From Deltaproteobacteria bacterium (GTDB taxonomy: Bacteria > Desulfobacterota > Syntrophobacteria > BM002): a stretch of 64,000 nt of DNA. The notes beneath the pieces are model-generated. The model had not been told where the DNA came from. It searched no databases and worked only from the letters and a program-made list of their open reading frames with translations. The DNA is taken from the NCBI GenBank assembly GCA_037384945.1, contig JARRNM010000013.1, positions 1,321 through 65,320 of the forward strand, written 5' to 3'. This document shows positions 7,915-38,959 of the stretch, piece after piece (within the stretch, counting starts at the first letter, position 1; the number at the start of each line of letters is the position of its first letter). Made by a program: the position numbers and the translations under genes.

Positions 7915-8010
7915 CAGTCCGTTGTCGGTAGTCCGTGGTCCGTTGCTTAAAAAAAGAGATCCGAGTTTCACTTTGCAAGGGACAACCGACTACGGACAAC
8001 GGACCTACCC
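7915..8010. repeat. Intergenic hairpin repeat, family B (GTAGTCCGTGGTCCGTTGC ... GACAACCGACTACGGACAACGGACC)
   Basis: GTCCGT-type motifs shared with 1175-1210, 1540-1575, 36120-36160, 46100-46145 and 49665-49780. Confidence 0.55.
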
Positions 8011-8230
8011 AGCTCTTTCCCCTTGACTATGATGGAGAGTTGCGATTTATTCTGCCAAACCACCCCAAGATGAATCGGAGACAGAGAAACGCGGACAAAC
8101 GGAGACCGGGAGGATTGACCACAAGGCCTATACTTGTCTGATTTGATCAAAATCGATATCTTACAGAAATTCGCCTCTCCATCTCACCACCTCGCGGTCT
8201 CACCCTGTCAGCTCCATCAGAAATTATTCT

Positions 8231-20050: not shown

Positions 20051-20368
20051 ATGGCTACCATTCCCAACAAACGTTTTTTCAAAATTGGAGAGGTCAGTCG
20101 AATTGTCGGCGTTCCAACCCATGTTCTCCGCTATTGGGAAAGGGAGTTTTCCCTGGTCAGACCTCGAAGGGCTCCATCAAAGCAGCGGATGTACAAACGA
20201 AAAGATGTTGAGATGCTCCTTTACATAAAGAAGCTGCTGCATCAGGAAAAATTCACCATTGCTGGTGCCCGCAAAAAGCTGCAACCAGCCTCCGCCCCAT
20301 CTTCACCCCACCAGACTTTAGAGGAAATCAGGCAAGAACTGATTGATCTCCGCCGCATGTTGGATTGA
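20051..20368 (+). CDS. MerR-family transcriptional regulator (small, HTH only)
   Basis: HTH FKIGEVSRIVGVPTHVLRYWEREF typical of MerR. It sits downstream of pheT, as in many proteobacteria. Confidence 0.7.
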   Translation: MATIPNKRFFKIGEVSRIVGVPTHVLRYWEREFSLVRPRRAPSKQRMYKRKDVEMLLYIKKLLHQEKFTIAGARKKLQPASAPSSPHQTLEEIRQELIDLRRMLD

Positions 20369-20553: not shown

Positions 20554-20949
20554 ATGGATCTCGTCTTATCCAAAGAAGCAATAGACAACATCATCAATGT
20601 TCTCGATGAAGATCTTCTCCGGGGTGGAGCTGACTGCGTTCTTTTGGTTGACCGCTCAGGCAACCTCATTGTCAACCGAGGCGATCCTGCTAATCTCGAC
20701 GTTGTGGCCCTAGCTGCGCTTTCCGCCGCCAATTTTGGCGCCACCGCCGAAATTGCTAAGCTAATTGGAGAAGATGACTTCGCCCTTCTCTTCCATAAAG
20801 GCAAGAATGAGAACATCCATTTCACCAAAGTGGGGAAAGGCTTCATCCTCATCACTCTATTTGGCAAGGAAGTCTCCCTGGGACTGATTAGATTGAACAC
20901 CGCGAAAGTCACCGAGACTCTGATACCTATTCTGGGCGGAGAGCAGTAA
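20554..20949 (+). CDS. mglB: Roadblock/LC7-domain protein (MglB-type GTPase-activating protein)
   Basis: Roadblock fold sequence LLVDRSGNLIVNRG...AALSAANFG. It ends 2 nt before mglA. Confidence 0.8.
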   Translation: MDLVLSKEAIDNIINVLDEDLLRGGADCVLLVDRSGNLIVNRGDPANLDVVALAALSAANFGATAEIAKLIGEDDFALLFHKGKNENIHFTKVGKGFILITLFGKEVSLGLIRLNTAKVTETLIPILGGEQ

Positions 20950-20951
20950 CT

Positions 20952-21563
20952 GTGTCATTCATTGATCTGAGTAAAAATGAAGTACAGTGCAAGATTGTCT
21001 TTTATGGACCTGGCCGGGGGGGTAAGACTACCAATCTACTCTACCTGCATCAGGCTATGACCGAGGCTGTTCGTGGCAAGATGGTTACCATCGATACCAA
21101 GGGTGACCGTACTCTGTTTTTTGACTTCCTACCCTTGGCACTCGGTAAAATTCAGGGACTGAGCATCAAGATCCAGCTCTATACAGTTCCCGGACAGGTC
21201 ATGTACAATGCCACCCGTAAACTAGTTCTCAAGGGCGTAGACGGCATTGTTTTCGTGGCCGATTCTCTAAAAGTTCAAAAAGAGAAGAACATGGAGAGCC
21301 TCGAAAACCTGAGACAGAATCTTGCTGAGGACAACTTAGACATCAAAGAAGTCCCTCTTGTTCTTCAGTTCAATAAGAGGGACCTTGGCGGTTCCAACAT
21401 TCCCATCCTCACCCTTGATGAGATGGAACAAGACCTGAATGGGGAACTCCAAGTACCTTGGTTCAGCGGCAGTGCATTAAAAGGCGACGGTGTGTTTGAA
21501 ACGCTTAGAGAGATCAGCAAGCGCACGGTCAAATACGTAAGCCGTAAGCTTTTATCTCGTTAA
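20952..21563 (+). CDS. mglA: Ras-like small GTPase MglA
   Basis: CKIVFYGPGRGGKTTN, TLFFDFLPL, YTVPGQVMYNATRKL, NKRDL. Near-identical motif set to Myxococcus MglA. Confidence 0.85.
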   Translation: MSFIDLSKNEVQCKIVFYGPGRGGKTTNLLYLHQAMTEAVRGKMVTIDTKGDRTLFFDFLPLALGKIQGLSIKIQLYTVPGQVMYNATRKLVLKGVDGIVFVADSLKVQKEKNMESLENLRQNLAEDNLDIKEVPLVLQFNKRDLGGSNIPILTLDEMEQDLNGELQVPWFSGSALKGDGVFETLREISKRTVKYVSRKLLSR

Positions 21564-21592: not shown

Positions 21593-23986
21593 ATGGATTT
21601 TACCGACGACCCCTTGGCTGGAGTCGATGCAAGCGAACTTGAGGCAGATATCGATAAGGCGATCGATGAGCTCTTCGTAAAAAAGGGTGAAGTTAAAGAG
21701 TCAGTGGTTGCCAAACCGGAAGAACCCGCTGAAGAACCGACACAAGAGCCCAAGGATGAGCCAGCGGAAGAACCCGACTTAGGGGAGCCATCCGATCTCG
21801 TAGATGATCCCCTGGCTGACCTGAAAGAGAGCCTTCTTACCTTAGACTGGGAAATCACCCCAGAGTCCATCAAGACCTTTGAAAAGGAGCTTAATCTTGT
21901 AAGCGACAAGCTGGGTGACGACCGTCACTGTATGGCGGTCATCAAGATGACTTTGGGAGTCATCCAATACCTGCGCGCTGCAAAGGAATCAGCCGCGCCC
22001 ATTTCCATTCAATTCTTGCACGGAGCCACACGAGGTCTTGACATTTTTGTGCGGGAGCCAGCACCCTCAGACTCTGAACGCAGTGAGGTAATGGATAAAT
22101 TACTCGGCCAGTTCAGGCGAGTGAAGGCAGAAATCCAGCGGGTGAAACCCCAGGAAACACCTGAAGGCGTGGAGGAACCCCCGGCAGTCGAACCGACCTT
22201 CGAGCCAGAGCCTGCCGAGGAGCTGATTTTAGAGGAAATTACAGCGGAGGAACCGGAGCTGGAAGAGTTGGCTGAGGAAGCACCGGTCTCTGAAGAGATA
22301 ATAGAAGACGAGCCTATCTTGGAGGAGGTCATACCAGAGATGGAGATAGGGGGTGCTCCATCCGAAAAAGAACCACTAATGGAAGAATTGGTGGGCGAGG
22401 AAGCAGTCGTAGAAGATGTATCCCCGGAAGAACTGGACTTCATGGCGGACCTCGAAGAGGAACCCATTCTGGAAGAACCGGCTGAAAAAGAGCCAACCCT
22501 GGAGGCAACAACTGCCGAAGAATTGACCTTGGATGAAGAGGAGCCAGTAGAACCCGGCCTGGTGGCGGATCTCGTGGAAGAGCCCATTCTGGAAGAGCCG
22601 ACTGAAAAAGAGCCAACCCTGGAAGCAACAACTGCCGAAGAATTGACCTTGGAGGAAGAGGAGCCAGCAGAACCCACCCTGGCGGCGGACCTGGAAGAAG
22701 AACCGTATCTGCCACTAGATCTCGATGAAGAACCCTCTTTCGAGGAGTTGTTCGAGGAGGAAGAGGTTTCCGCGGAAGTGGCCGAAGAAGAGCCACTTTC
22801 TGCCCCCCTTCTGGAGGAAGAACCGGAGGTAGAAGAAGTACTTGGAAAAGAATTGGAGCTGGAAGGACTTTCAGAGGAGGAGCCAGCTCTGGAGCCCATG
22901 CTGGAGGCCGAAGAGATTGCTCCCCCACCCGGGATACCGGCGGGAGAAATACCTCCATCTTTGCAAAATCTCATCCAGGAAGCAAAAGACCAGAGTGGCA
23001 TGCTTGCAGAAGCCGTGTCCAGCCTCACTCAGGAGACTGAAGACTTCTTTGGCCGCATTTTAAAAGCCATGTCTGGCAAGCCTTCACTGGCGAAGTTAGA
23101 AAAATATTTTGGTTCCGCCCACAATAAGTTGGAAGCCGAAACTTTACAGGCCCGAGAGTTATCTGGAAATCTGGTTAGAACCTTGGCCAAACTTGAGAAA
23201 AACCTTGGCCAGCAACAGCCGGAGAAGGCTACACCCCAGGCTCAGGCTGAAATAAGCTCTCAGGTCAAGACCATACAGCATGCCATTGACGACATAAGCC
23301 AGGCTGCCTCCAAATTGCAGCGAAGCCTTACCGGCGTGGCTGGAGCCCCAGTAGCCAGCTACGAGGCCACAACCTCGAAGGATGCTCGCGTGGAAACAGA
23401 AGAGTTTTCTTTGGATTCCGATGACCTCGTAGAATCTCTGGACTCCGAACCGGTACTGGACCTGCTCGAGGAGATTCCTTCAGAACCCCTGAGCCCGAAA
23501 TCTGGCGCACTGGCCACCAGATATCTAGCTGATGTGGCCAATAATACACTGGGAATACCCACGGAGGCAGTCGCCAATGTCTTCAAACTTTCCAAGGGCA
23601 AAGTCAAGGCTGTACGTAAGAGAGGTTACGTCAGACTGGCCGACTTCAAGGGAGCCTTTAGCAGTATCAAGCGGGGAGTTACCGGTCCCCTTGCGGATTT
23701 AAAGCCCAAAGAGCTTAAAAAGATACAATTCCCCCTTGTCAGTCTGCGTCCGGAGACTCTTGGCAGCGATGACACCGAGGCAGTAGCCCCCCCAGTCAGA
23801 GGTATCGTCCTTCTTAGCACCGGTCAGCGCCATGGTGCCTTGCTGACTGACGAATTTATGCAAAGGACGCCCTATGACGTCAAAGGCTATCAGAAAGCCG
23901 GACTACCAGGAGAGGTGAGTGGCACGGCCACTATCGAAGGAGACTTTGAGATCAACGTTATTGATCCGGACTACTTACTTTCTTAG
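21593..23986 (+). CDS. Hyper-acidic Glu/Pro-rich tandem-repeat protein (~800 aa) with a distinct C-terminal domain
   Basis: Two ~40 aa tandem repeats (EEPILEEPxEKEPTLEATTAEELTLxEEEPxEP) at 22430-22700, a long E/P-rich low-complexity core, and a non-repetitive C-terminal ~250 aa. Starts 27 nt after mglA. Confidence 0.7.
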   Translation: MDFTDDPLAGVDASELEADIDKAIDELFVKKGEVKESVVAKPEEPAEEPTQEPKDEPAEEPDLGEPSDLVDDPLADLKESLLTLDWEITPESIKTFEKELNLVSDKLGDDRHCMAVIKMTLGVIQYLRAAKESAAPISIQFLHGATRGLDIFVREPAPSDSERSEVMDKLLGQFRRVKAEIQRVKPQETPEGVEEPPAVEPTFEPEPAEELILEEITAEEPELEELAEEAPVSEEIIEDEPILEEVIPEMEIGGAPSEKEPLMEELVGEEAVVEDVSPEELDFMADLEEEPILEEPAEKEPTLEATTAEELTLDEEEPVEPGLVADLVEEPILEEPTEKEPTLEATTAEELTLEEEEPAEPTLAADLEEEPYLPLDLDEEPSFEELFEEEEVSAEVAEEEPLSAPLLEEEPEVEEVLGKELELEGLSEEEPALEPMLEAEEIAPPPGIPAGEIPPSLQNLIQEAKDQSGMLAEAVSSLTQETEDFFGRILKAMSGKPSLAKLEKYFGSAHNKLEAETLQARELSGNLVRTLAKLEKNLGQQQPEKATPQAQAEISSQVKTIQHAIDDISQAASKLQRSLTGVAGAPVASYEATTSKDARVETEEFSLDSDDLVESLDSEPVLDLLEEIPSEPLSPKSGALATRYLADVANNTLGIPTEAVANVFKLSKGKVKAVRKRGYVRLADFKGAFSSIKRGVTGPLADLKPKELKKIQFPLVSLRPETLGSDDTEAVAPPVRGIVLLSTGQRHGALLTDEFMQRTPYDVKGYQKAGLPGEVSGTATIEGDFEINVIDPDYLLS

Positions 23987-24056: not shown

Positions 24057-26210
24057 ATGCAAGCAAATATCAGTAACAACTCCAGCCTCAATGACTTTCC
24101 AGAAATTCAGGAGAAGATTGATGAGGCTGAACTATACCTTACCCAAGGTCTCTTCGACGAAGCCCGTCAGATCTACCAAGATCTCCTGAACGAGGTTGCA
24201 TCCCTTGCAGGACAAGGAGTTGCCGATCCTGCCAAGCTTCAATTCACCAAGAACCGCCGCGCATTCATTCAGAAGCAGCTAACCACTATTGACCGTCTGG
24301 AGGCCGAATTCCACGGGCAGCCCCTAGAGGCCTCAGCAGAAGAACCGGTCGCTCCTCAAGAAGGTAAAGGCAACGCTGCTTTCAATCGGGGACAAGCCTT
24401 CTTGGACATAGGGATGTATGCCGATGCAATTCAGGAGTTTCACCGGGCTGTCGAATTAGGGTATCAACCTACTGAATGCTCTCTCCAGATTGGCAAGGCC
24501 TATATCCAACTGGGACAATATGGGGAAGGCATTCGAGTGCTCCAGGAGGCTTACAAGCGCAAGAATTTAAGCGAGCCTGAAAGAAATCTCGTCCTAGCTC
24601 AGTTGGCCTTAGGCTATGAAACGGCTGGCGACAAGGAAGAAGCACTACAGGTTTATCAGCAACTGGCTGAACGGGATCCCAAGCATTCAACCGCGGCCAA
24701 TAAGGTCAAGACCCTGGCCCAGGAGGGTGATCGCTATTATTTCAATATGGTCAAGCTTCACCTGAAAAATAAGCAGTTTTCCAAAGCGATTAAAACTCTC
24801 AGGCAACTGGAGAAGGAGAAACAGACTTCTCTTGCTGAGATAAAGCCATTTTATGAGCAAATACTGGAGAAAGATCCGGGGAATAATGAGGCGGTTGAGC
24901 AGATCACCATTATTTACCGGCAAATGCTTGACAATGGCAGTGCCGGAGTTGACACCCGGCTTAAGCTCGCCCGCCTCCTTCTTCGGGCCGGTCAGTTCGA
25001 CAAGGCTGCCAACGAGTATCTGGAAGTAATGCTCGAGGACAACCCTTATAAAATAACCGCGCTTAGCGAGCTGGGCGAGTCCCTGTTGGAACGCCAGGAC
25101 TATGACCGCATATTGGAACTCCTTGAAGACGCTGCTCCCTGGGTAGAGTCCCTCGATCCAGGACCGGAAACCCTGAACTACTACATACTGCTCGGAAAGG
25201 CATGTGAAAAGAAAAACCTCTATGACCAGGCGCGCTCCTACTTCCAGCGAGCTGCAGCCATTGATCCCACCCATGAGGCTATTCGGGCCAAAGCTGACAC
25301 CCAGAGCAAAGATCCTCTTGTCTCCCGAGGTAAGGCCCTACTCGCACTCAAAGTGGACGAAAACATCCATTATAAGATTCAAGAGAAAATCGGCGAGGAT
25401 ACGATTCATCAGTTTTTCAAGGTCGAGGAGGTTCCTAGCGGAACTCTGCGCGTTGCCAAGTGTCTTTCTCCCGCCCTATCAGGGGAAATCACCGCGAAGG
25501 ACTTCATGGTCAAATGGGGCTACGAACAAGTGAATATGGAAAATCGCAACGTCACCCGGATTCTGGACGTGGCCGAGAGGAAGGGGCTTTATTACCTTAT
25601 TACAGAGGATTTCGACACTACCTTGGAGGATTTGCTCAAAAAGAAAACCCACCTGTCTATAAAAGAGGCGGTCCGTTTGGCCAGAGCCCTGCTCAACGGT
25701 TTGGCTTATGCCCATTCGCATCGGGGCACCGACGATACCCTGAGAAAGATATTTCACCTCGGTTTAAATCCCAAAAGGGTCCTGATCCGAGGTGAGTTGA
25801 TCAGGGCCAAGATTGCTGATTTTGGCCTCATCTCGAATTTGGCTAGCCAGTTGGGTTTTACCCTGGACTACAAAGAACTCTCTAACTACGAACTCACCTA
25901 TCTGGCGCCCGAATTGTTCAGCCGGGCGCCCACGCGCATGCCGGAAAAAATGAAACAGGCCGCAGACCTCTATTCCTTCGGCCTGGTTTTTTACCGAGCC
26001 CTCACAGGCAAGGTGCCTTTCGAAGGGCCATCACCCGAGGATTTCAAAAAACAGCACAACGAGCAATACCCCGTACCGCCGCGGGTGCATATCTCCAGCA
26101 TTCCTGCCAAACTGGATGAAGCCATTCTAAAATGTCTACACAAGGATCCCAAGAAGCGCTGGCGCACGCCTACCGAGCTGGATCTCGCTTTGGAAAAGAT
26201 TCAAACCTAG
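24057..26210 (+). CDS. TPR-repeat protein with a C-terminal degenerate protein-kinase-like domain (predicted pseudokinase)
   Basis: TPR-like helices in the N-terminal ~400 aa. The C-terminus has VAK, DFG (IADFGL), APE (YLAPELF), DLYSFG and HKDPKKRW motifs. The catalytic loop is HLGLNPKRV instead of HRDLKPxN, and the Gly-loop is degenerate. Confidence 0.7.
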   Translation: MQANISNNSSLNDFPEIQEKIDEAELYLTQGLFDEARQIYQDLLNEVASLAGQGVADPAKLQFTKNRRAFIQKQLTTIDRLEAEFHGQPLEASAEEPVAPQEGKGNAAFNRGQAFLDIGMYADAIQEFHRAVELGYQPTECSLQIGKAYIQLGQYGEGIRVLQEAYKRKNLSEPERNLVLAQLALGYETAGDKEEALQVYQQLAERDPKHSTAANKVKTLAQEGDRYYFNMVKLHLKNKQFSKAIKTLRQLEKEKQTSLAEIKPFYEQILEKDPGNNEAVEQITIIYRQMLDNGSAGVDTRLKLARLLLRAGQFDKAANEYLEVMLEDNPYKITALSELGESLLERQDYDRILELLEDAAPWVESLDPGPETLNYYILLGKACEKKNLYDQARSYFQRAAAIDPTHEAIRAKADTQSKDPLVSRGKALLALKVDENIHYKIQEKIGEDTIHQFFKVEEVPSGTLRVAKCLSPALSGEITAKDFMVKWGYEQVNMENRNVTRILDVAERKGLYYLITEDFDTTLEDLLKKKTHLSIKEAVRLARALLNGLAYAHSHRGTDDTLRKIFHLGLNPKRVLIRGELIRAKIADFGLISNLASQLGFTLDYKELSNYELTYLAPELFSRAPTRMPEKMKQAADLYSFGLVFYRALTGKVPFEGPSPEDFKKQHNEQYPVPPRVHISSIPAKLDEAILKCLHKDPKKRWRTPTELDLALEKIQT

Positions 26211-26333: not shown

Positions 26334-26723
26334 ATGGATCAGAATCCGACAGGTGAGATTACATCAACTGAGCTCGCCAGAGAACGCAGTCGGGAAGCTG
26401 CAGAGCGAACGCTCATGGCGTCGGTGCGCACCTCCCTTACGCTCATTGGCTTTGGCTTTGGTCTCGGCAAGTTACATGGGTACCTGCAAGCAGTTGGCTT
26501 GAGAGAAAAAATCGATCCCATCCACAGCACCCTGATTTTCGGACTGAGTTTTATCACCTTCGCTATCCTCGGCCTGTTCGCGGCGGTATTCCAGCATCGG
26601 CTAGTCTTGAGGCGACTTAAAGGGGGCCAGTTTGTCTATGTACCTTCCTGGCCCTTGGAGACAATAACGGCGGTTTTCCTGTTCTTCATGGGCTTGTTTG
26701 GCTTAATTGAACTTTTTATTTGA
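26334..26723 (+). CDS. DUF202/YidH-family small membrane protein
   Basis: ERTLMASVRTSLTLIGFGFG motif and two TM helices. Confidence 0.7.
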   Translation: MDQNPTGEITSTELARERSREAAERTLMASVRTSLTLIGFGFGLGKLHGYLQAVGLREKIDPIHSTLIFGLSFITFAILGLFAAVFQHRLVLRRLKGGQFVYVPSWPLETITAVFLFFMGLFGLIELFI

Positions 26724-27123
26724 ACTGGCAGCGGCACAGTTGATGCTCCACCGCTATATTTTCTTCCCAAGTGAATGAGCTATAAGCAAATGACGGCAGT
26801 TAGCAATCGCCCGTCACCCTGGTCCCGCATCACCGATGAATCGGGATCTCCGCTTCACTCCGGCAAGCTGCGGGATGGGCTCCGGCTGGGATGCAGGTAG
26901 GTCATGCCTTCAAGTCATCCGAAGACTGAATTATTGAACAGTCTGGATTTGCCAAGAGGAGGAATTCCACAATGAATGTCATGGCGGTTCTTACCCAAGT
27001 GGAGTCGGCAACGTTCCTGGTGCGCTGGGCAGCAAGATTTGCTCAAGGGCAGCCATCGGCTTCATCCGTCTCGAGAGTCTGGTAGGTAAGCCGTCATGGC
27101 TCGGTTTAATCGGAAGCCGTATC

Positions 27124-28101
27124 TTGGGCTGGCTGCCGGTTCTCGATGCTGAGGACCGGATCGACTTGTTTGATCGACTTCAGGTGGGTGCCCGGTGGAA
27201 TGTTGATTTCATCATGATGATTTCTTTGTCAACGGCCATTGCCTCTCTTGGATTGATCCAGAATTCTACTGCAGTGGTGATTGGCGCCATGGTCGTGGCC
27301 CCCCTGATGACACCGCTCATTGGCTCAGGGCTCGCTCTTGTCCAGGGAAATACCTCACTTTTTCGTGATTCTCTCAAGGCAATGTGATTCGGGATCGGTG
27401 CGGCTTTGCTCATCTCAATCTTTTTCGGCTTAACTGCCCCCATGGAAGCTTTGACCCCGGAGCTACTTGCCCGGGGAGCGCCTACCCTCATTGATCTGGC
27501 AGTGGCCTTTCTTTCTGGGGTTGCCGCCGCTTATGCCGTGGCCCGACCCTCATTACTGGGGGCCCTCGCCGGGGTGGCAATAGCCGCAGCTCTTGTGCCT
27601 CCCCTGGCAACCGTTGGCATTGCCTTTGCCACGGGCGCCTGGAAAATCTCTCAAGGTGCAGCTATTCTTTTCCTCACCAACCTGGTTGCCATTATCCTCG
27701 GTGCGGCATTTATATATCGTCGCCTCGGTATCCAAGGCACCAGGTTAGGCATCAGGTCGCCTCTGTGGATGCGACGGACGGTTCTCTCTCTGATTCTCAT
27801 CGCAGTGATGTTAACTGCGCCCCTGGGATTCAAGCTGGCCCGGCAACTGCGCGAAGGCCAGACCCGCCCATACACTTTGCCGGTAAGCCTTTCAGTTTAC
27901 CAGGCTATCAAAGAACGCATCCATCAAGAATATGGGGTAACCCTAATCTCTGCCCTTCGTTTTGGGATCAAGAGCGACACTGATGCTGCCATCATCCTGA
28001 GTGCTCAAAAGCCCGTATCCGTGAATCTCTTATCGGATCTCAAACAACTGGTAAACGATAAAATAGGGGAAAATGTTCGCGTGGCGGTTCATGTGCTCTA
28101 G
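27124..28101 (+). pseudogene. DUF389-family membrane protein interrupted by an in-frame TGA (27388-27390). A likely additional frameshift lies upstream near 27080.
   Basis: ORFs 27124..27387 and 27406..28101 are in the same frame and together match DUF389 (…SLKAM*FGIGAALLISIFFG…). An upstream RBS+ATG at 26955 opens a different frame that stops at 27083. Confidence 0.55.
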
Positions 28102-28173
28102 GAAGCAAGAGTTAAACGGACCAAATTTTGATGAGACCGGAGCGAGGGTAACTTATTCGTCAACCGTTATATC

Positions 28174-28340
28174 GTCTCCATCCGGAGACTTGCTTTTCCG
28201 TTGTCATTCTGAGGAGTCCCGCGAATGGCGGGACGACGAACAATCTCGTGGCTATGGGGATTGCGGGAGATTCTTCGCGGAGCTTGTCCTGAGGAAAACG
28301 AAGGGCTCAGAATAAAAATGTTGAGTTTCCGGATGGAGAC
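28174..28340. repeat. Family C MITE-like element, copy 1 (~167 bp). TIR GTCTCCATCCGGAGAC / GTTTCCGGATGGAGAC; internal hairpin TCATTCTGAGG ... CTCAGAATAA.
   Basis: Second copy at 44787-44958, about 80% identical. ORF 28073..28315 inside it is judged spurious. Confidence 0.65.
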
Positions 28341-28661
28341 TATATAGTTCTAATAGTTGATATTCATCAATATTTGACCAATGCTTATCAGGTGTACACT
28401 CGGATGTCTGACTTATCTAGGGTCTGTCTAAGGTCCCGGTGAGTGATTTAACCCGTCCAATCCACACTTTGCTTTGAATACCAAGGTATTATATTCTGGG
28501 TTAAGCTCAGACCATGCGGAGTTAAATGAATATCCCTTTTGATAAAATTTTAAGATGAACTTACAACTTAAATTAGGAATTCAAATGAGAGGAAAATTTA
28601 ACAGCGGAATTTTTTCTTTGCAAGTCTTCTTATAATTCCTGCACTTGGTGAAGAAGTCAAA

Positions 28662-29228
28662 ATGGATATGAATCTCGATTTGCAAGTAAGAAGATTTATA
28701 GAAAGCCATAGAGGCCAGTGGGTGGACTGGAATATTCCCGCAGTTGATGGTCAGGTTCTGTATGATCTTATCATACAGAATAAGTATAAAAAAGCAGTTG
28801 ATATTGGCACTTCCACAGGGCACTCGGCGATTTGGATGGCATGGGCATTAAGCAAAACCGGTGGAGAACTTATTACGATCGAGATAGATGAAGGGCGCTA
28901 TAGAGAGGCCCTGGCGAACTTTAAACAAGCCGGACTCGACGGTTACATCGATGCACGGCTTGCTGATGCCCATGGACTCGTTAAAAAATTGGCAGGTCCC
29001 TTTGATTTTGTTTTTTGTGATGCGGACAAAGAGTGGTATAAGAACTACTTCGTAGCCTTAGCTCCCAAACTCGAAGTTGGCGGCTGTTTTACTGCACATA
29101 ATGTCTCTTGGAGGTCTGATAGAGGCATCAAAGAGTTTCTTGATTATGTACTAAGCTTACCTAATTTCGAGACCAAAATAGACAGGTCCAGCCAACAGAA
29201 CATTTCGATTAGCTTTAAGAAGTGGTAG
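28662..29228 (+). CDS. Class I SAM-dependent O-methyltransferase (caffeoyl-CoA OMT-like)
   Basis: VDIGTSTGHSAIWMA (motif I) and FDFVFCDADK (motif post-I/II). Low-GC gene. Confidence 0.8.
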   Translation: MDMNLDLQVRRFIESHRGQWVDWNIPAVDGQVLYDLIIQNKYKKAVDIGTSTGHSAIWMAWALSKTGGELITIEIDEGRYREALANFKQAGLDGYIDARLADAHGLVKKLAGPFDFVFCDADKEWYKNYFVALAPKLEVGGCFTAHNVSWRSDRGIKEFLDYVLSLPNFETKIDRSSQQNISISFKKW

Positions 29229-29359
29229 TTTTAGGGACAATGGGCCCGAAATTTCGCTAGGAGAGTCCTTGGTTTTGCTATAACTATTGGGTATCACCAG
29301 CCCATCCCCTTCACGGAAGCTCCACATGGTTATACCAAGCTACTATCTCACCAATGGAG

Positions 29360-29557
29360 CTATGCTATTTTAGCTTCAAGCTCTTCTTCTCGAGCATGGA
29401 GAAATAAAGACTCTGCCGCTGAGTCGCTCTGATCTATTTCCAAAAATCTGCTTCTGAGGGCCGGACATTCCAGGAATAGATTTAAGCGCTTCTCCAGGTC
29501 CCCTTTCCTGTATTCCTCCAAAATACTCTCGCTCCTGGTCATTTCTTTATCCTCCAT
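29360..29557 (-). CDS. Hypothetical small acidic protein (65 aa)
   Basis: ORF immediately downstream of the hydrolase gene. No motif. Confidence 0.3.
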   Translation of the reverse strand: MEDKEMTRSESILEEYRKGDLEKRLNLFLECPALRSRFLEIDQSDSAAESLFLHAREEELEAKIA

Positions 29558-30448
29558 TTACTTTATCTTATCCCCCAAGTAATCCAAGGCGCTATTTACT
29601 ACCGAGCTTTCAGTCAGGATTTTTTTGTGACCCAAACGCTCGGTCGTGTGCAATTCAATGTTTGGAAACCTTTCTGAGATCTCTCTGGAATCATCATATG
29701 GGATAGTGGGGTCATTCTTGTCGTGAACTATCAGAATCTTTGAGTCGATTTTTCTCAATAGATTGATCGGGTTGTCTCGCTGCATATTGTAGCCGAACTC
29801 ATCTTCATACTCTTTTATAAGGATTTCATAGATGGTCCGGGGGATACCGACATGATCGAAAAAACCATACAAGACTTCCTTGAGCCTCAAGGCCGGGGCG
29901 ATGAGAACCACTTCCAGGGGATGATTTTCTTTTTCCATGCTGTTGACCACAGCCGAACCTCCCAGGGAGTGGGCAATTACACCCCGGATATTGTAACCAT
30001 CACGAGACCTTATCAGGGCCCTGATGGTGTCGCTAAACTCGAAGTAACTTGATGTTCTCCCCTGAGACTCTCCATGGCCTGGAGCGTCATAGGTAAGTAC
30101 CGAATATCCTCTTTGTATAAGTGGTTCAATAAAGCGATGTAATTGGATCCCCCTGCCGTTCCATCCGTGAGCCAGGAGAACGCCGGGGCCACTCCCCCAC
30201 TTCCAACACTTTACAGCCTTGTCGCTTATAGAAATCTCAAATCTCTCGCCGTTGTCAAGATACTCTCTTTCCACAGGAGTGATTTTGTAGATAGCGGGGG
30301 TGAAGAGCATCCTCTTGATGATTCCTTTCGAAAGACTGGCTGTATGGTTCCAGAGTAAATTGAAAAAGGTGTGAGTAACTTTTTGTCTCAGCTTGTATAA
30401 ACGAACGTTCGTGCTATTACATCCCAATGCTAAAATTTTAGTAGACAT
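29558..30448 (-). CDS. Alpha/beta-fold hydrolase (esterase/lipase-like)
   Basis: HGWNGRG oxyanion region and the nucleophile elbow AHSLGG. Confidence 0.8.
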   Translation of the reverse strand: MSTKILALGCNSTNVRLYKLRQKVTHTFFNLLWNHTASLSKGIIKRMLFTPAIYKITPVEREYLDNGERFEISISDKAVKCWKWGSGPGVLLAHGWNGRGIQLHRFIEPLIQRGYSVLTYDAPGHGESQGRTSSYFEFSDTIRALIRSRDGYNIRGVIAHSLGGSAVVNSMEKENHPLEVVLIAPALRLKEVLYGFFDHVGIPRTIYEILIKEYEDEFGYNMQRDNPINLLRKIDSKILIVHDKNDPTIPYDDSREISERFPNIELHTTERLGHKKILTESSVVNSALDYLGDKIK

Positions 30449-30510
30449 TGTTTCCCTCCTGAGAGCAGATTGCCAACCATAGTGCAGTAAGCAAAAAACG
30501 ATAACAACTA

Positions 30511-31128
30511 TTATTGATAGTTGGCCACGAGTTGATTCAGAGCTTGTTCTTGACGCTTTTTGGTTTCAGAGTCGTCAAGTAATTTGTCATAAAGGTGAAA
30601 ACCAAGCAAAAGAGAATAAAGGTCAAAGGCAAATTGTTCACAGTCCGCATCCTTCCTGAATGCGCCGACCTTTATTGCCGATTGGGCAATACGGCGAAGG
30701 CAATCGATCCAATCGTTTTGTTGACGCAACAAACATTCCCTCACTCTTCCGGGCCTGTCGCTATAGTCTGCGCTGGCCGAAACAAAGATACATCCACCCG
30801 TCAATTGGGAAGTCCAGTCTATCCAATTATTGACCAACGCTTTTATTCTTGGAATACCGGGCTCGGTGTCCAAGGCCGGAACAATGACACTCTTGGCAAA
30901 AACACGGGCAGCGTACTCCAATATTTCAATCTGCAGGTTCTCCTTAGATTGGAAGTGAGCGAATAATCCACTTTTGGACATGTTCATGGCCTTCGCAAGG
31001 GAGCCAATGCTCACACCTTCGAGGCCCAGTTGACTGGCCATATCGAGCCCGGCTTCCAGGATGGCCATTTTTGTCTCTTTCCCCTTTTGCATGTCCAACA
31101 ATATAGTACGAACGTTCGTTTTTGTCAA
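30511..31128 (-). CDS. TetR/AcrR-family transcriptional regulator
   Basis: N-terminal HTH LEGVSIGSLAKAMNMSKSGLFAHFQSKENL. Confidence 0.8.
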   Translation of the reverse strand: MTKTNVRTILLDMQKGKETKMAILEAGLDMASQLGLEGVSIGSLAKAMNMSKSGLFAHFQSKENLQIEILEYAARVFAKSVIVPALDTEPGIPRIKALVNNWIDWTSQLTGGCIFVSASADYSDRPGRVRECLLRQQNDWIDCLRRIAQSAIKVGAFRKDADCEQFAFDLYSLLLGFHLYDKLLDDSETKKRQEQALNQLVANYQ

Positions 31129-31444: not shown

Positions 31445-32668
31445 TTATTTACGCTTGAGGAAAGACAGGATGCCCTTTCCCTTGCCTTTGCCGTCCTTAT
31501 CAAACCCTTGTTGAAATTGTTCCACCGTTTGAATGATCGAACTAAGGATTGCCCCTTTGAGGTTGGATTTAACCGGGAACTGCTGCCAAGATGAGGCGGG
31601 ATTGGTCAATGCTTGCAGGATCGCCCCCATTTGCTCCTCATTGAAAATCTCCTTCTGCTTGTGGAGGATGGCAAAAATCCAGGCATTGAAACCATTGAGC
31701 AGCTCTTGATTGCTCGGAGTGGATTTAGGTGAACTCCCGAGGATCAGTTTGAGATTCCTTTTGGCATCGCCCCGGCAATCGTAAACTCGAAGAAACTTCG
31801 AGTACTGGGCGGGCACTTGAGCTTTGGCCTCTTCCAGAAGATTTTGAGCCCGACTGCCCACAGTCTTTTCAGTGATCTCCAGTACATTGAGGAGCACTCG
31901 GTGATATATCTGGATAATAGCAGGGGCCTCACTTTTGTCTTCAGAAGTGACTGCCGCCACACTCATGCCTTGTTCAATTAGACCTGAGGAAATTAAGGAG
32001 TTAATCACCCGGTAGACGCTAAACTCATCGTTGCCGCTATCCTCTATTACCTGTTGCACCGTTCGCTTGCCATTGATAAGAGAAATGATGCGCCACTCAT
32101 TGGCGGTCAAGTTCACAGTGTCGCGCTGTTCCTCCACGGACCTGTTGATCTTGAAAACCATTTGTTTATCTGGAATGTTCTTCTTTAGAATACCCCATTC
32201 ATCCACCCGCCGAGTGCCTTCAAGAATGACCTCCATATGGTTCAGCTCTGTGACAAACTCTTGATCCAGATTGAAATCCTGGTCTACATATTCGAAGTCT
32301 CCTTGTTTCCATAGGAACAAGTCGTAGAGAATATCGCGCACCTGTTGATGAATAAACTTCTTGAGTGTTTCAACCGAGATGAAGCCCTTTTCCACCAAGA
32401 TCTTCCCCAGTTTTTCATTTCTTTGTTTGGCGAGAGCAAGGGCTTTCTGGAGCTCTTCGGCTGAGATAATACCTTTGGTGCGAAGGAGATAACCAAGCCT
32501 TACCTCTTTTTGGGTGCCCACTGCATAAACGATATTGCCATTCTTGATGTAAACCCGCACAAGGCGGTCTTGTTCGGCAATGGTGAGGATACCGGTCTTT
32601 TTATCCTGAGCAAGAAGCTGGAGGATACTGGATAAATATAATGTCCCGATATTACCCTTTAGTGCCAT
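31445..32668 (-). CDS. DUF4388 (PATAN-like) domain protein with a Lys/Gly-rich C-terminal tail
   Basis: N-terminal GNIGTLYLSSILQLLAQDKKTGILTI is the DUF4388 signature. Confidence 0.65.
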   Translation of the reverse strand: MALKGNIGTLYLSSILQLLAQDKKTGILTIAEQDRLVRVYIKNGNIVYAVGTQKEVRLGYLLRTKGIISAEELQKALALAKQRNEKLGKILVEKGFISVETLKKFIHQQVRDILYDLFLWKQGDFEYVDQDFNLDQEFVTELNHMEVILEGTRRVDEWGILKKNIPDKQMVFKINRSVEEQRDTVNLTANEWRIISLINGKRTVQQVIEDSGNDEFSVYRVINSLISSGLIEQGMSVAAVTSEDKSEAPAIIQIYHRVLLNVLEITEKTVGSRAQNLLEEAKAQVPAQYSKFLRVYDCRGDAKRNLKLILGSSPKSTPSNQELLNGFNAWIFAILHKQKEIFNEEQMGAILQALTNPASSWQQFPVKSNLKGAILSSIIQTVEQFQQGFDKDGKGKGKGILSFLKRK

Positions 32669-36286: not shown

Positions 36287-37801
36287 TTGTCGTGGCTGCC
36301 GAGGGTGCTTCCTTTATATCCTTCTTTGTCCCGCCTATGGGTCGATATGTCAGTTGATCGCCAACTCGACGACATCACAGTTTTGTTGAGTAACTGTTTG
36401 GATGCATACACGGCAGCCGTCTTTATCTGGGACGACCCTAGCAAGCTCCTTACCCTCCGGGCCTTTCACACTCTGAGCAAGCACATTATCTCCAAGCTAC
36501 GATTTCCCCCTGAAGATGGAGGCCTTATAGGCTGGGTAGCCAAAAACAAGCAGCCACTAACCGTCGATCACTTCGACCGTGACTCCAGAATTCTCCCCTA
36601 CTACGGAAGTGACGAGAACATCAAATCTTTCCTGGCTGTCCCGTTGCCTGGTCCTAGAGGCGTTATTTGCGTGGACAGTAAACGGCAGTATGTCTTCACC
36701 AATAAAGACCAAAAACTCCTCTCAGGCTTTGCAACCGTCGCAGCAAACGCCCTCAGTGCTGAGCGCGAAAGTATGCGCCACCTGCGTCAGCGCCAGCTCT
36801 TGACCTTGTGGCGTCGGGCAGATGCACTGCCCGCTGATACGGACGATCCCGCTCCATATCTAACCCGGTTACTGGATTCTGTCTGTCCATATTTGCAAGC
36901 CAACGCTGGCCTGGTTGCCGTCCCAATCAAAGATGGAGAATTCTTGCAACCGGTGGCCGCATCCGGCACCTTGCCAGCAACACTCCTGAAAAATGCTTAT
37001 CCAGTCGATCAGGGAATCATGGGTTGGATCTATCAGAATCGCAAATCCCTCACTATCCCTAAATTTCGCTCCCCTACTCGTATTCCCTTTCTTTTTGGCC
37101 CCCGAGACGGTATCGGCAGTATAGGTGGCCTGATTGGTATGCCCCTTGCCTGGGAAGCAGAAGAGGTTGGCGGCGTTATGGCCTTTATCTGTCGCACCGA
37201 AGCCAAGTGGGGCAAAGAAGAAATTGGTGCGGTTACCTCGGTGGTGAGGAGAGCTTCCCTGGTTTTACAGAACTTTACCCTCAAACGGGAATTAGCCCTG
37301 GTCCGGAATTTGGATCCCATCACCGAAGTCTGCAACACTGAGGCATTTGATCGTGTACTCCAGAAAAGATTACAACGCTGTCGGGAAAAGGGCACTAGCC
37401 TTGCTCTGGGCATAATTGCGATCCGTGAGTTCGAGGCATTAAGCACTCGAGTTGCTTTACCAGCCCTGGCGGCTCTTCGCCAACGGGTTGCCTCAACTCT
37501 GCTCCAGCGACTCAAGCGAGGACAGCTCATGGGATGTCTCGATCAAGCTCGTTTCGCCCTGTTATTTGAAGATGACGAGGAGAAAGAAATTCGTGAGCAA
37601 CTCCTGGCGATTTCCGTTGCTCTGGATCAGGAGGTGCTGGCACCCTTGGGCGACGCCCCCCGCTTGCAAGCGTCGTTCGGTTTTGCCATCTTTCCTCGAG
37701 ATGCGGCCTCTGCAAATGAACTCTGGACTATGGGCTTCAGAGCCCTGACGGATCAAACACCTAGTATGCCGGTTAGCAGGACCAAGATGAGATCTGCTTG
37801 A
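36287..37801 (+). CDS. Tandem GAF-domain protein with a C-terminal degenerate GGDEF-like domain. The start is probably an internal Met near 36341.
   Basis: Two GAF-like segments. The C-terminal domain aligns to GGDEF, but the signature is GCLDQ instead of GG(D/E)EF. Confidence 0.65.
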   Translation: MSWLPRVLPLYPSLSRLWVDMSVDRQLDDITVLLSNCLDAYTAAVFIWDDPSKLLTLRAFHTLSKHIISKLRFPPEDGGLIGWVAKNKQPLTVDHFDRDSRILPYYGSDENIKSFLAVPLPGPRGVICVDSKRQYVFTNKDQKLLSGFATVAANALSAERESMRHLRQRQLLTLWRRADALPADTDDPAPYLTRLLDSVCPYLQANAGLVAVPIKDGEFLQPVAASGTLPATLLKNAYPVDQGIMGWIYQNRKSLTIPKFRSPTRIPFLFGPRDGIGSIGGLIGMPLAWEAEEVGGVMAFICRTEAKWGKEEIGAVTSVVRRASLVLQNFTLKRELALVRNLDPITEVCNTEAFDRVLQKRLQRCREKGTSLALGIIAIREFEALSTRVALPALAALRQRVASTLLQRLKRGQLMGCLDQARFALLFEDDEEKEIREQLLAISVALDQEVLAPLGDAPRLQASFGFAIFPRDAASANELWTMGFRALTDQTPSMPVSRTKMRSA

Positions 37802-37930
37802 TTATACAAATTTAGCCTATGCGAGATTAGGGCAGTACTGAAGTGATCCCACCTTATTCCTCCCCTCGATCGGGGAGGAAAGTCTTTTACCTTTAGATGG
37901 AAAAGAGCCAATAGGAGAACAGAGCCACTT

Positions 37931-38959
37931 ATGAGATTGCTGGACGGAATTGCGGGACTTTTTGCTAAGGATATGGCAATGGACCTTGGCACTGCCAATA
38001 CCCTAATTTATGTGAAAGGTGAGGGTATCGTGCTTAACGAACCATCGGTGGTAGCCTTGAGTCGAGATACGGGTAAGGTAGTCGCAGTGGGCCGCGAGGC
38101 CAAGGAGTATCTTGGTCGCACGCCTCAAAAAATAGTTGCCATTCGCCCCATGAAAGACGGGGTAATCGCCGATTTCGAAGTTACCAGTGTGATGATTAAA
38201 TATTTTCTCAAAAAGGTCAGGAAAAGAGCCACTCTCTTTCGCCCACGATTGATAGTCGCAGTACCCACAGGCATTACCCAGGTGGAAAAACGGGCGGTTA
38301 TTGACTCGGCAGAGGAATCAGGAGCGCGTCAGGTCAATCTTATTGAGGAACCTATGGCGGCTGCCGTCGGCACTGGTCTGCCCATCCACAAGCCTGTGGG
38401 CAACATGATTGTGGATATAGGTGGCGGCACAACAGAGGTGGCAGTTATTTCACTTTCTGCCGTGGCCTACTCAGAATCAGTGCGGGTTGCCGGCGACGAG
38501 GCCAACGAGGCCATAATTCGCTACGTTCAGAACCACCACCAGATTGCCATTGGAGAAAATGAGGCGGAAAGAATCAAGCTGAAAATCGGCTCTGCCTGCC
38601 CACTTCCTCAGACCTTGACCGCCAAGGTGGCTGGCAAGGAGATACTTACAGGTATACCGAGATCTTTCGAGATGAGCGACGAGGAAATCAGAAGGGCCTT
38701 GACTGAACCGGTGAACGTCATCATAGAGAGTATCAAGCGGACTTTCGAGAAGACACCGCCAGAACTGGCGTCGGACATCAGTAACAGCGGTGTGTGGTTG
38801 GCGGGAGGCGGTGCTCTTCTGAGAGGGTTGGACACCTTGCTTGCTGATATTCTTCAGCTTGCAGTGAATGTGGAACAAGATCCTCTGACCACGGTAACCC
38901 GCGGCGCCGGCAAGGTGATGGAATCAATTAATGAATATCAGCAGGTTTTTATAAACTAG
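37931..38959 (+). CDS. mreB: Rod-shape/cytoskeletal actin homologue MreB
   Basis: DLGTANTLIYV, ASG family signature and ~340 aa. No mreC/mreD downstream. Confidence 0.9.
   Translation: MRLLDGIAGLFAKDMAMDLGTANTLIYVKGEGIVLNEPSVVALSRDTGKVVAVGREAKEYLGRTPQKIVAIRPMKDGVIADFEVTSVMIKYFLKKVRKRATLFRPRLIVAVPTGITQVEKRAVIDSAEESGARQVNLIEEPMAAAVGTGLPIHKPVGNMIVDIGGGTTEVAVISLSAVAYSESVRVAGDEANEAIIRYVQNHHQIAIGENEAERIKLKIGSACPLPQTLTAKVAGKEILTGIPRSFEMSDEEIRRALTEPVNVIIESIKRTFEKTPPELASDISNSGVWLAGGGALLRGLDTLLADILQLAVNVEQDPLTTVTRGAGKVMESINEYQQVFIN

Follow-up and report, generated by a model that had tools for sequence, protein, structure and literature searches.

Architecture of the locus

The stretch of DNA analyzed here (the window; 64,000 nucleotides of contig JARRNM010000013.1 from a Deltaproteobacteria bacterium of the class Syntrophobacteria) carries four consecutive + strand genes that encode the Roadblock protein MglB, the Ras-like GTPase MglA, a very acidic protein that we call X, and a predicted pseudokinase with an N-terminal array of tetratricopeptide repeats (TPRs). 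This cassette, with the pseudokinase as its last gene, is conserved in uncultured Syntrophobacteria, and the pseudokinase belongs to a new bacterial family whose conserved linkage to a small-GTPase module is likewise new.

The first gene, mglB (positions 20554 to 20949, + strand), is present in all loci compared and encodes a Roadblock/LC7 GTPase-activating protein (GAP; Pfam Robl_LC7, E = 1.3e-10), whose match to the NCBIfam MglB model (E = 1.8e-15, 57 bits) is under the 200-bit cutoff of that equivalog. The product of mglA (20952 to 21563, +) matches Myxococcus xanthus MglA (PDB 6hjh) over its full length at E = 4.5e-61, and the two genes together, an MglA-type GTPase beside a Roadblock/LC7 MglB, constitute an MglA/MglB module. 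Gene X (21593 to 23986, +) and the pseudokinase gene (24057 to 26210, +) complete the cassette, with intergenic gaps of 2, 29, and 70 bp between the four genes. A promoter and terminator scan, whose counts were the same as in shuffled sequence, placed no + strand terminator-like site inside the cassette. A MerR-family regulator (20051 to 20368, +; Pfam MerR_1, E = 9.8e-21) lies upstream and is syntenic in most loci.

The pseudokinase open reading frame (ORF) runs from an ATG at 24057 to a stop codon ending at 26210 and encodes 717 amino acids (aa); an identical protein exists in public data, and M1 is invariant in the family alignment described below. Its layout is of a cytoplasmic type, with a helical region at the N terminus, about eight TPR hairpins after it, and a Hanks-type kinase domain at the C terminus. 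The N-terminal region (aa 1 to 100; 24057 to 24356, +) is the least constrained part of the protein and forms helices at residues 15 to 29, 33 to 52, and 58 to 85 in a full-length AlphaFold2 (AF2) model that we built from 34 family sequences. Pfam, AF2, and Foldseek agree on the TPR region (aa 101 to 416; 24357 to 25304, +), which consists of about eight helical hairpins and a capping helix: TPR_14, TPR_12, TPR_2, and related families cover aa 100 to 415 with E values of 1e-12 to 3e-23, and this part of the model matches consensus TPR superhelices and the TPRs of OGT and SPINDLY. The kinase-like domain (aa 438 to 717; 25368 to 26207, +) is matched by PF00069 at aa 439 to 703 with E = 6.8e-25 and 88.4 bits against a cutoff of 31.7. 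PknB/Stk1-type bacterial Ser/Thr kinases match it in a phmmer search of the PDB (E of ∼7e-18), and the modeled domain aligns with PknB, PknA, and PknE in Foldseek at template modeling (TM) scores to target of 0.63 to 0.75. By its significant Pkinase profile match and bilobal kinase fold, the product belongs to the protein kinase superfamily. An earlier note on this DNA, made from the sequence alone, had proposed a kinase-like domain fused to TPRs, and both the kinase similarity and the fusion are borne out by these searches and by the model. The best 25 of 35 Pfam matches comprise two kinase models and otherwise TPR or TPR-like helical-repeat families only, and none of these 25 is a domain linked to the described bacterial pseudokinase families. 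The mean predicted local distance difference test (pLDDT) score of the model is 75.6, with values of 85 to 90 in the TPRs, 75 to 88 in the N-lobe, 45 to 75 in the C-lobe, and <50 at aa 556 to 568.

A degenerate active site fixed across the family

A search of ∼5.8 billion proteins recovered 104 relatives at 45 to 100% identity; the next matches, at 86 bits and 31% identity, are generic kinases with sharply lower scores. The named relatives, all from metagenome-assembled genomes (MAGs), are labeled Deltaproteobacteria, Syntrophobacterales, or Syntrophobacteria. We aligned the 93 full-length members with MAFFT, and counts out of 93 refer to this alignment.

The catalytic loop of the window protein reads HLGLNPKR (aa 567 to 574; 25755 to 25778, +; DNA cac ctc ggt tta aat ccc aaa agg) in place of the canonical HRDLKPxN. 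HMMER pairs IFHLGLNPKRVLI of the ORF product with IVHRDIKPQNILI of Staphylococcus aureus PknB, an alignment in which the HRD Arg is replaced by Leu, the catalytic Asp by Gly, the Lys by Asn, and the Asn by Arg. The column of the catalytic base, occupied by G569 in the window protein, holds Ala in 60 members, Gly in 26, Ser in 4, and Cys in 3, with Asp in 0/93. The flanking H567 and L568 are invariant, the column of the catalytic-loop Lys is N571 in 92/93, and that of the Mg-binding Asn is R574 in all 93. The Gly-rich loop is likewise degenerate: IGEDTIHQF (aa 445 to 453; 25389 to 25415, +), placed by profile alignment with active kinases, conforms to G446-x-D448-x-x-H451 rather than GxGxxG, with G446 in 88, D448 in 92, and H451 in 84 of the 93 members. 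The canonical column of the αC Glu, as placed by HMMER alignment to 4eqm, is occupied by Trp487 (25515 to 25517, +), which is found in every member of the family and in 58/63 sequences across the window clade and its sister clade. E490, one helical turn further on and present in 91/93, may serve as a substitute for the αC Glu, in a part of the AF2 model that is too uncertain to place it.

Other motifs of the fold are kept. The β3 VAK motif (aa 466 to 468; 25452 to 25460, +) carries K468, aligned with the VAIK Lys of active kinases, in 92/93 members, and the DFG motif (aa 588 to 590; 25818 to 25826, +) carries D588 in 93/93, with F589 in 84/93 and Leu or Ser in the most divergent members. The APE motif (aa 617 to 619; 25905 to 25913, +; A617 in 91/93, P618 and E619 in 93/93), the αF Asp (D637, 93/93) within DLYSFG at aa 637 to 642, and the αI Arg (R701, 93/93) within KKRW at aa 699 to 702 are also retained. 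Among the features of a catalytically competent kinase, the product lacks the HRD Asp, the catalytic-loop Lys and Asn, and the GxGxxG loop and keeps the β3 Lys and the DFG Asp. A kinase fold that has lost at least one of the VAIK Lys, HRD Asp, and DFG Asp and remains under purifying selection is a pseudokinase by an operational definition, and the protein falls within that definition. The earlier note had called it a predicted pseudokinase from the loss of the catalytic Asp and loop Asn, the degenerate Gly-rich loop, and the persistence of the VAK, DFG, APE, DLYSFG, and KKRW motifs. Each of these readings agrees with the DNA and the alignment, and with the catalytic Asp and the loop Asn absent from all 93 full-length homologues, the ORF product is probably catalytically inactive.

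Selection and conservation along the protein

Ratios of nonsynonymous to synonymous substitution rates (dN/dS), computed against the three closest orthologous loci at dS of 0.5 to 1.3, are 0.05 to 0.07 in the C-lobe, 0.05 to 0.10 in the N-lobe, ∼0.10 in the TPRs, and 0.25 to 0.31 in the N-terminal 100 aa. Invariant columns make up 42% of the C-lobe, compared with 13% of the TPR region, and the C-lobe is 67 to 72% identical in members whose TPR region is only 38 to 57% identical. Conservation peaks at 58% invariant columns in the αG-αI region (aa 656 to 717; 26022 to 26207, +; motifs QH..YPVPPRV and KKRWRTPTE), a candidate docking surface in which many columns are also conserved in the sister clade. 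The conserved C-lobe points to a surface under constraint.

We therefore give practically no credence to a decaying former kinase gene or to a sequencing or assembly artifact at the catalytic loop. The codon of G569 is one G-to-A substitution away from Asp (GGT to GAT), but all 93 homologues, from independent assemblies, share the loss of the Asp along with the other substitutions, so that the degeneracy is a trait of the family and not a sequencing error. Random decay, already doubted in the earlier note, is rejected because dN/dS is 0.05 to 0.10 across the kinase-like domain and the C-lobe is the best-conserved part of the protein; reading frames are also intact at 717 aa across loci.

A conserved insertion before the catalytic loop

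Helix αE is separated from the catalytic loop by an 8-residue insertion specific to the family (SHRGTDDTLRK; 25716 to 25748, +), which appears as a gap in alignments with PknB and is modeled at pLDDT <50. The region reads A-H553-S-H555-R-G-x-D559-D-x-L-R563-K, an H-x-H-x-G-x-D motif in which H553, H555, R556, D559, and R563 are each found in 93/93 members, and H553 and H555 are kept in sister clades as well. A nearby Asp that stood in for the lost catalytic base would undo the pseudokinase prediction, and D559 and D560, invariant and 8 to 10 residues upstream, were the candidates for this role. D559 does not look compensatory, because it is equally conserved in the sister clade that retains the Asp of an HLD loop, as it also is in relatives without TPRs.

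Complementary losses in the sister clade

We searched 1.84 billion cluster representatives exhaustively with a profile and found the window family to fill only a few 50% clusters. The same search recovered single-domain proteins that share the insertion and the QH..YPxPP(R/K)V and RWRSxT motifs. Several of these insertion-bearing relatives carry N-terminal TPRs, and two of them (P0128 and P0177) sit in a Roadblock-MglA-X-TPR/kinase-like cassette with different surrounding genes. The named members of the sister clade (clade B; the window clade is clade A) are Syntrophobacteraceae or Deltaproteobacteria MAGs. Their catalytic loop reads H-L-D-L-R-P-S-R, with the Asp present, while the β3 Lys column holds Gln, Ile, Leu, or Asp and the DFG Asp column holds Asn, Tyr, or Leu, in motifs such as N-G-G, N-Q-G, and Y-G-G. 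The Lys, the HRD Asp, and the DFG Asp occur together in 0 of 59 distinct cassette-linked sequences. Residues at these positions are strictly paired: K468 and D588 go with A or G569 and N571, and Gln and Asn at the first two positions go with D569 and R571. Because they switch in pairs between the clades, these residues look like internal structural partners, and we infer that the paired side chains probably contact each other inside a closed pseudo-active site rather than bind Mg-ATP. W487, H553, H555, D559, H567, L568, R574, the DFG Gly, the APE motif, the αF Asp, and the αI Arg are kept in both clades. Each clade has lost the part of the catalytic triad that the other retains, and both have kept the C-lobe surface and the insertion, which argues that the conserved function is not phosphotransfer; these losses amount to a natural experiment that points to the residues that matter.

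The same comparison bears on the possibility that the protein is an atypical but active enzyme, either a kinase with noncanonical residues or a kinase fold with some other chemistry. Asp559 or Asp560 might act as the base and Arg574 or Asn571 might replace the Lys and Asn-Mg contacts; AMPylation of the SelO type, glutamylation of the SidJ type, or a metal centre formed by H553, H555, D559, and H567 could also be imagined. The retained nucleotide and metal ligands K468 (92/93) and D588 (93/93) would fit such an enzyme, as would the H-x-H-x-G-x-D insertion and R574 beside the catalytic loop, which are mostly conserved across all clades, and some kinase-fold proteins that were at first classed as pseudokinases, SidJ among them, proved to be otherwise active (PMC12599244). 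However, the sister clade, in the same cassette, lacks K468 and D588 and keeps the insertion, so that the orthologues do not share one set of nucleotide-binding residues. D559, kept where the HLD Asp remains, is unlikely to stand in for the lost base; the acidic D448 takes the place of the second Gly in the phosphate-binding loop in 92/93 members, and the αC-Glu column is a Trp. We consider an active enzyme unlikely.

A third group, without TPRs, has an HLS or HLN loop and D-C-G, adjoins radical S-adenosylmethionine (SAM) and Memo/AMMECR1 genes, and is not accompanied by MglA. Three loci from Thermodesulfobacteriota MAGs (L028, L029, and L030; genes at 8001 to 9470) encode such TPR-less relatives with the HxHxGxD insertion, an HLS or HMx loop, and D-C-G or DFG at the DFG position. 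There the gene follows a radical SAM gene, a Memo/AMMECR1 fusion, and a small ORF of 77 to 88 aa, again without MglA, in what is a second conserved context of the same atypical kinase-like domain. At one further locus (L023, 512 to 10356), the sister pseudokinase P0187, with an HLD loop and Y-G-G at the DFG position, is followed by genes for a response regulator, CheW, a methyl-accepting chemotaxis protein, and CheA. This is the only locus with an adjacent chemosensory cluster, and the contig breaks off on its upstream side.

Conservation of the cassette

Our comparison of clade A loci drew on metagenomes as well as GTDB species representatives and reached a pseudokinase identity as low as 50%. 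The order MglB-MglA-X-pseudokinase was found at 14/14 distinct loci with enough uninterrupted upstream DNA, and MerR-MglB-MglA-X-pseudokinase is the recurrent order around them; MglA is 86 to 96% identical across these loci. Clade B has the same order in L022, L026, and 27 metagenome loci (∼29 loci in all, at ∼36 to 58% identity), the last from a scan that found 48 related loci, of which all 27 with at least ∼4.5 kb of upstream sequence carry the cassette. The earlier note had proposed a GTPase-effector role from the position of the gene after mglA. The linkage to mglA is conserved at these 14 and ∼29 loci, but the two genes are not directly adjacent, since the 797-aa gene at 21593 to 23986 intervenes.

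Two apparent exceptions to the synteny (L007 and L021) have 100-N scaffold gaps beside or inside gene X, and three contigs (L009, L013, and L020) end within X or the pseudokinase gene. The gaps, at 6421 to 6520 in L007 and 7899 to 7998 in L021, occur in two MAG chromosomes designated complete. They fall inside or beside the repeat-bearing gene X and the pseudokinase gene, which suggests that the acidic repeats cause assembly mis-joins there and makes these two records unfit as evidence of cassette loss.

The four-gene core is constant while its flanks vary: pheST and the MerR gene lie upstream in L001, L002, and L022, a PATAN-pentapeptide gene lies upstream in L026, and the genes downstream of the cassette differ in every clade. 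This change of flanks around a constant core favors a functional linkage. It also bears on the alternative that the gene order is inherited synteny in a narrow lineage and that the pseudokinase works in an unrelated pathway, for example as an allosteric partner of an active Hanks kinase whose gene lies at another locus. All cassette loci come from one class, as Syntrophobacteria or "Deltaproteobacteria" MAGs, and part of the synteny may be inherited; thrS-infC-rpmI-rplT-pheST, miaA, mutL, and mreB are syntenic in some loci too, and the TPR-less relatives next to radical SAM and Memo/AMMECR1 genes do without MglA. Nevertheless, the core stays intact while its surroundings change (L001, L002, and L022 versus L026), the spacing is tight, and the cassette persists to ∼36% pseudokinase identity while MglA stays 68 to 84% identical. 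An unrelated pathway is, in our judgment, improbable.

The acidic protein X

Gene X is a member of the cassette in both clades, and its product is 600 to 800 aa long across cassettes. A conserved N-domain (IDxAIDELFV ... LLTLDWEIS) is followed by Glu/Pro-rich tandem-like repeats that vary in length, then by a coiled coil and, at the C terminus, by a further conserved domain of ∼165 aa. Neither the whole protein nor three fragments of it had a Pfam or NCBIfam match. We modeled aa 445 to 797 with AF2 (mean pLDDT of 60.8, with most of the β-core at 65 to 87 and model residues 315 to 341 at ∼31 to 33), and the top Foldseek matches of this mid-confidence model were CheA-P5 and CheW (6s1k_A, E = 2.4e-4, TM score to target of ∼0.5), with further matches of this kind to 8c5v, 9a72_B, 2ho9, and 2qdl. 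Sequence methods do not confirm the likeness: a PDB profile search returned coiled-coil noise, Pfam gave no match, and hhalign of X against the CheW from the chemosensory locus L023 gave a probability of 0.2%. We therefore label the C-terminal domain (23489 to 23983, +) CheW-like only tentatively.

The repeats of X break many assemblies. Two long Ser/Pro-rich ORFs lie antisense to X (22009 to 23028, −, 339 aa; 22440 to 22958, −, 172 aa). These are most likely a side effect of the GAA/GAG-rich + strand repeats rather than genes.

Genomic surroundings

A PATAN/DUF4388-domain protein is encoded at 31445 to 32668 (−; E = 2.1e-33). The PATAN gene lies directly downstream of the pseudokinase gene in L001 and L002, and the PATAN-pentapeptide gene of L026 is directly upstream of mglB; PATAN domains are occasional neighbors of mglA and mglB (PMC4316618). 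In the window, ∼5 kb (26334 to 31128) separate the pseudokinase gene from the PATAN gene and encode DUF202, DUF389, an O-methyltransferase, an α/β-hydrolase, and a TetR regulator. This segment, possibly an insertion, is missing at the equivalent position in L001 and L002, and the GC content at 28 to 30 kb is 0.435 versus ∼0.51 elsewhere. Genes for a GAF-GGDEF protein and MreB (36287 to 38959, +) follow ∼10 to 12 kb downstream of the cassette and occupy an equal relative position in L001 and L002; MglA connects to MreB in M. xanthus (PMC4508894). A 727-aa receiver-PAS-GGDEF-EAL protein (59896 to 62079, +) and the GAF-GGDEF protein at 36287 make two genes for cyclic di-GMP turnover.

A possible scaffold or switch of the MglA/MglB module

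We hypothesize, with a probability of roughly 60%, that the TPR-pseudokinase is a noncatalytic scaffold, docking, or switch protein of the MglA/MglB module. The active site of a Hanks-type fold would here have been turned into a noncatalytic site held by selection, and the four cassette products may form a single GTPase switch module, with the pseudokinase as its docking platform or conformational switch. The TPR array, the conserved αG-αI surface of the C-lobe, or both could bind MglA, together with X as an acidic scaffold. MglA would most likely be bound in its GTP form, as it is by the TPR effector SgmX, and its state might then be relayed to a downstream target without phosphotransfer. The β3 Lys and the DFG Asp most likely pair together or hold a ligand, and catalysis by them appears unlikely.

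Several points weigh against this reading, which is drawn wholly from sequence and synteny. The conservation of H553, H555, D559, D560, and R574 has no explanation in a pure scaffold, and the retention of K468 and D588 is also the pattern of a nucleotide-binding or atypically active enzyme. The case for co-transcription of the cassette is one of spacing only, and since pheST and other housekeeping neighbors are themselves syntenic, the gene order may partly reflect general synteny. The AF2 model has a predicted TM score (pTM) of 0.41 and its lowest confidence at the catalytic loop and insertion, and at such values it does not fix the geometry of the pseudo-active site or the arrangement of the TPRs and kinase-like domain.

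The pseudokinase may be an effector, but it may also be a regulator or co-scaffold, and one alternative is a role upstream of MglA. In that case a noncatalytic protein of the module might act as a polar landmark or localization factor, tune nucleotide exchange or the GAP activity of MglB, or gate the GTPase cycle as an allosteric switch that senses nucleotides. The synteny supports such a role and the scaffold or switch reading equally, the K468/D588 pair could bind ATP without turnover, and regulators of MglA such as MglB are typically co-encoded with it, whereas the effectors SgmX and AglZ are encoded elsewhere. AglZ of M. xanthus is an MglA effector whose gene lies away from mglA. The gene for SgmX likewise lies away from mglBA (PMC7519303, PMC7668184). 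On the other side, the characterized TPR partners, SgmX and Bd2492, act downstream of or beside MglA-GTP, and we regard an upstream role as possible though on the unlikely side.

Two bolder versions of the scaffold or switch reading can be formulated. MglB, MglA, X, and the pseudokinase may be a self-contained new four-protein module in which the kinase fold reads the GTPase state and the CheW-like domain of X attaches it to chemoreceptor arrays. We put this forward with low confidence; if true, it would provide a direct route from a chemosensory array to a small GTPase in Syntrophobacteria, without the Frz/RomR wiring of Myxococcus. As a variant, H553, H555, D559, H567, and R574 would form a new metal or ligand site, and the protein would be a ligand-gated switch or a non-kinase enzyme.

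Bacterial pseudokinases have been catalogued only recently, and for hardly any of them is a partner or pathway known. Here the likely partners, an understood GTPase/GAP pair and a conserved scaffold, are encoded alongside, and the function of this pseudokinase is directly testable because of it. For the study of MglA, the cassette supplies a conserved, predicted operon partner from lineages other than Myxococcota and Bdellovibrionota.

Comparison with known systems

The window protein shares with PknB-type kinases (Mycobacterium tuberculosis PknB and S. aureus Stk1/PknB) the fold, the VAIK Lys, the DFG and APE motifs, the αF Asp, and the αI Arg. Unlike them, it lacks the catalytic Asp, the loop Lys and Asn, and the GxGxxG motif, has a Trp in the αC-Glu column and the 8-residue insertion, and carries an N-terminal TPR array with no transmembrane segment or PASTA domains. 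Scaffolding pseudokinases of the HER3 type in eukaryotes, in which HRD has become HRN and the β3 Lys and DFG are kept, act through protein contacts of the kinase lobes. The window protein resembles HER3 in its lost catalytic base, retained β3 Lys and DFG Asp, and a fold under selection, but it has also lost the Gly-rich loop and has a Trp in the canonical αC-Glu column, its predicted partner is a Ras-like GTPase module, and the kinship is only at the level of the superfamily.

Seven bacterial pseudokinase families have been described, ActPs1 to ActPs3, GLW, CP1, DYD, and DLHK (O'Boyle et al., bioRxiv 10.1101/2025.01.12.632604; PMC12599244), in each of which the VAIK Lys is missing in all or some members. 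CP1 is marked by linkage to COG3899, DYD by its motif, DLHK by DEAD/DNA2 linkage, and GLW by three traits, a GLW motif where HRD would stand, Leu or Trp at the β3 Lys position, and a transmembrane segment at the C terminus (bioRxiv 10.1101/2025.01.12.632604; PMC12599244). The family described here is like these seven in having a conserved bacterial Hanks-kinase fold with degraded catalytic motifs under selection. It differs in that the window clade keeps both the VAIK Lys and the DFG Asp and in its N-terminal TPRs, its own insertion, and the absence of a transmembrane segment; by their published descriptions, which are the basis of this comparison, it fits none of them. The string NGGLW in the sister clade might suggest membership in GLW, which we rejected, as the string sits at the DFG position and the HRD, β3 Lys, and transmembrane traits do not fit.

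A full-text literature search returned no relevant publication linking MglA with a pseudokinase and nothing relevant on bacterial pseudokinases with tetratricopeptide repeats. SgmX binds MglA-GTP through its C-terminal TPR12 to TPR14 (PMC7668184), and residues 108 to 221 of the window protein match positions 898 to 1014 only of the 1,065-position NCBIfam SgmX model (NF052243; E = 3e-8). At 32.4 bits against a cutoff of 1800, this is generic TPR similarity; membership in the SgmX family is rejected, and the match to the C-terminal stretch of SgmX is a lead only. Bd2492 of Bdellovibrio is a TPR partner of MglA encoded in the tamAB operon (PMC3983030). Unlike the window protein, SgmX and Bd2492 have no kinase-like domain and lie outside the mglBA operon; like them, it is a TPR protein tied to MglA, here by gene neighborhood. 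A kinase-family protein next to mglBA has a precedent in MasK of M. xanthus (MXAN_1929), which is encoded beside mglBA, in a divergent operon that also specifies the membrane proteins MasA and MasB, and interacts with MglA genetically and in yeast two-hybrid assays (PMC3546991). MasK reportedly is active as a kinase, associates with the membrane, and reacts with anti-phosphotyrosine antibody, and no TPRs are described for it (PMC3546991); the window protein shares its position beside an MglA/MglB module with MasK and differs from it in its TPR array, its cytoplasmic-type layout, and its predicted lack of catalysis.

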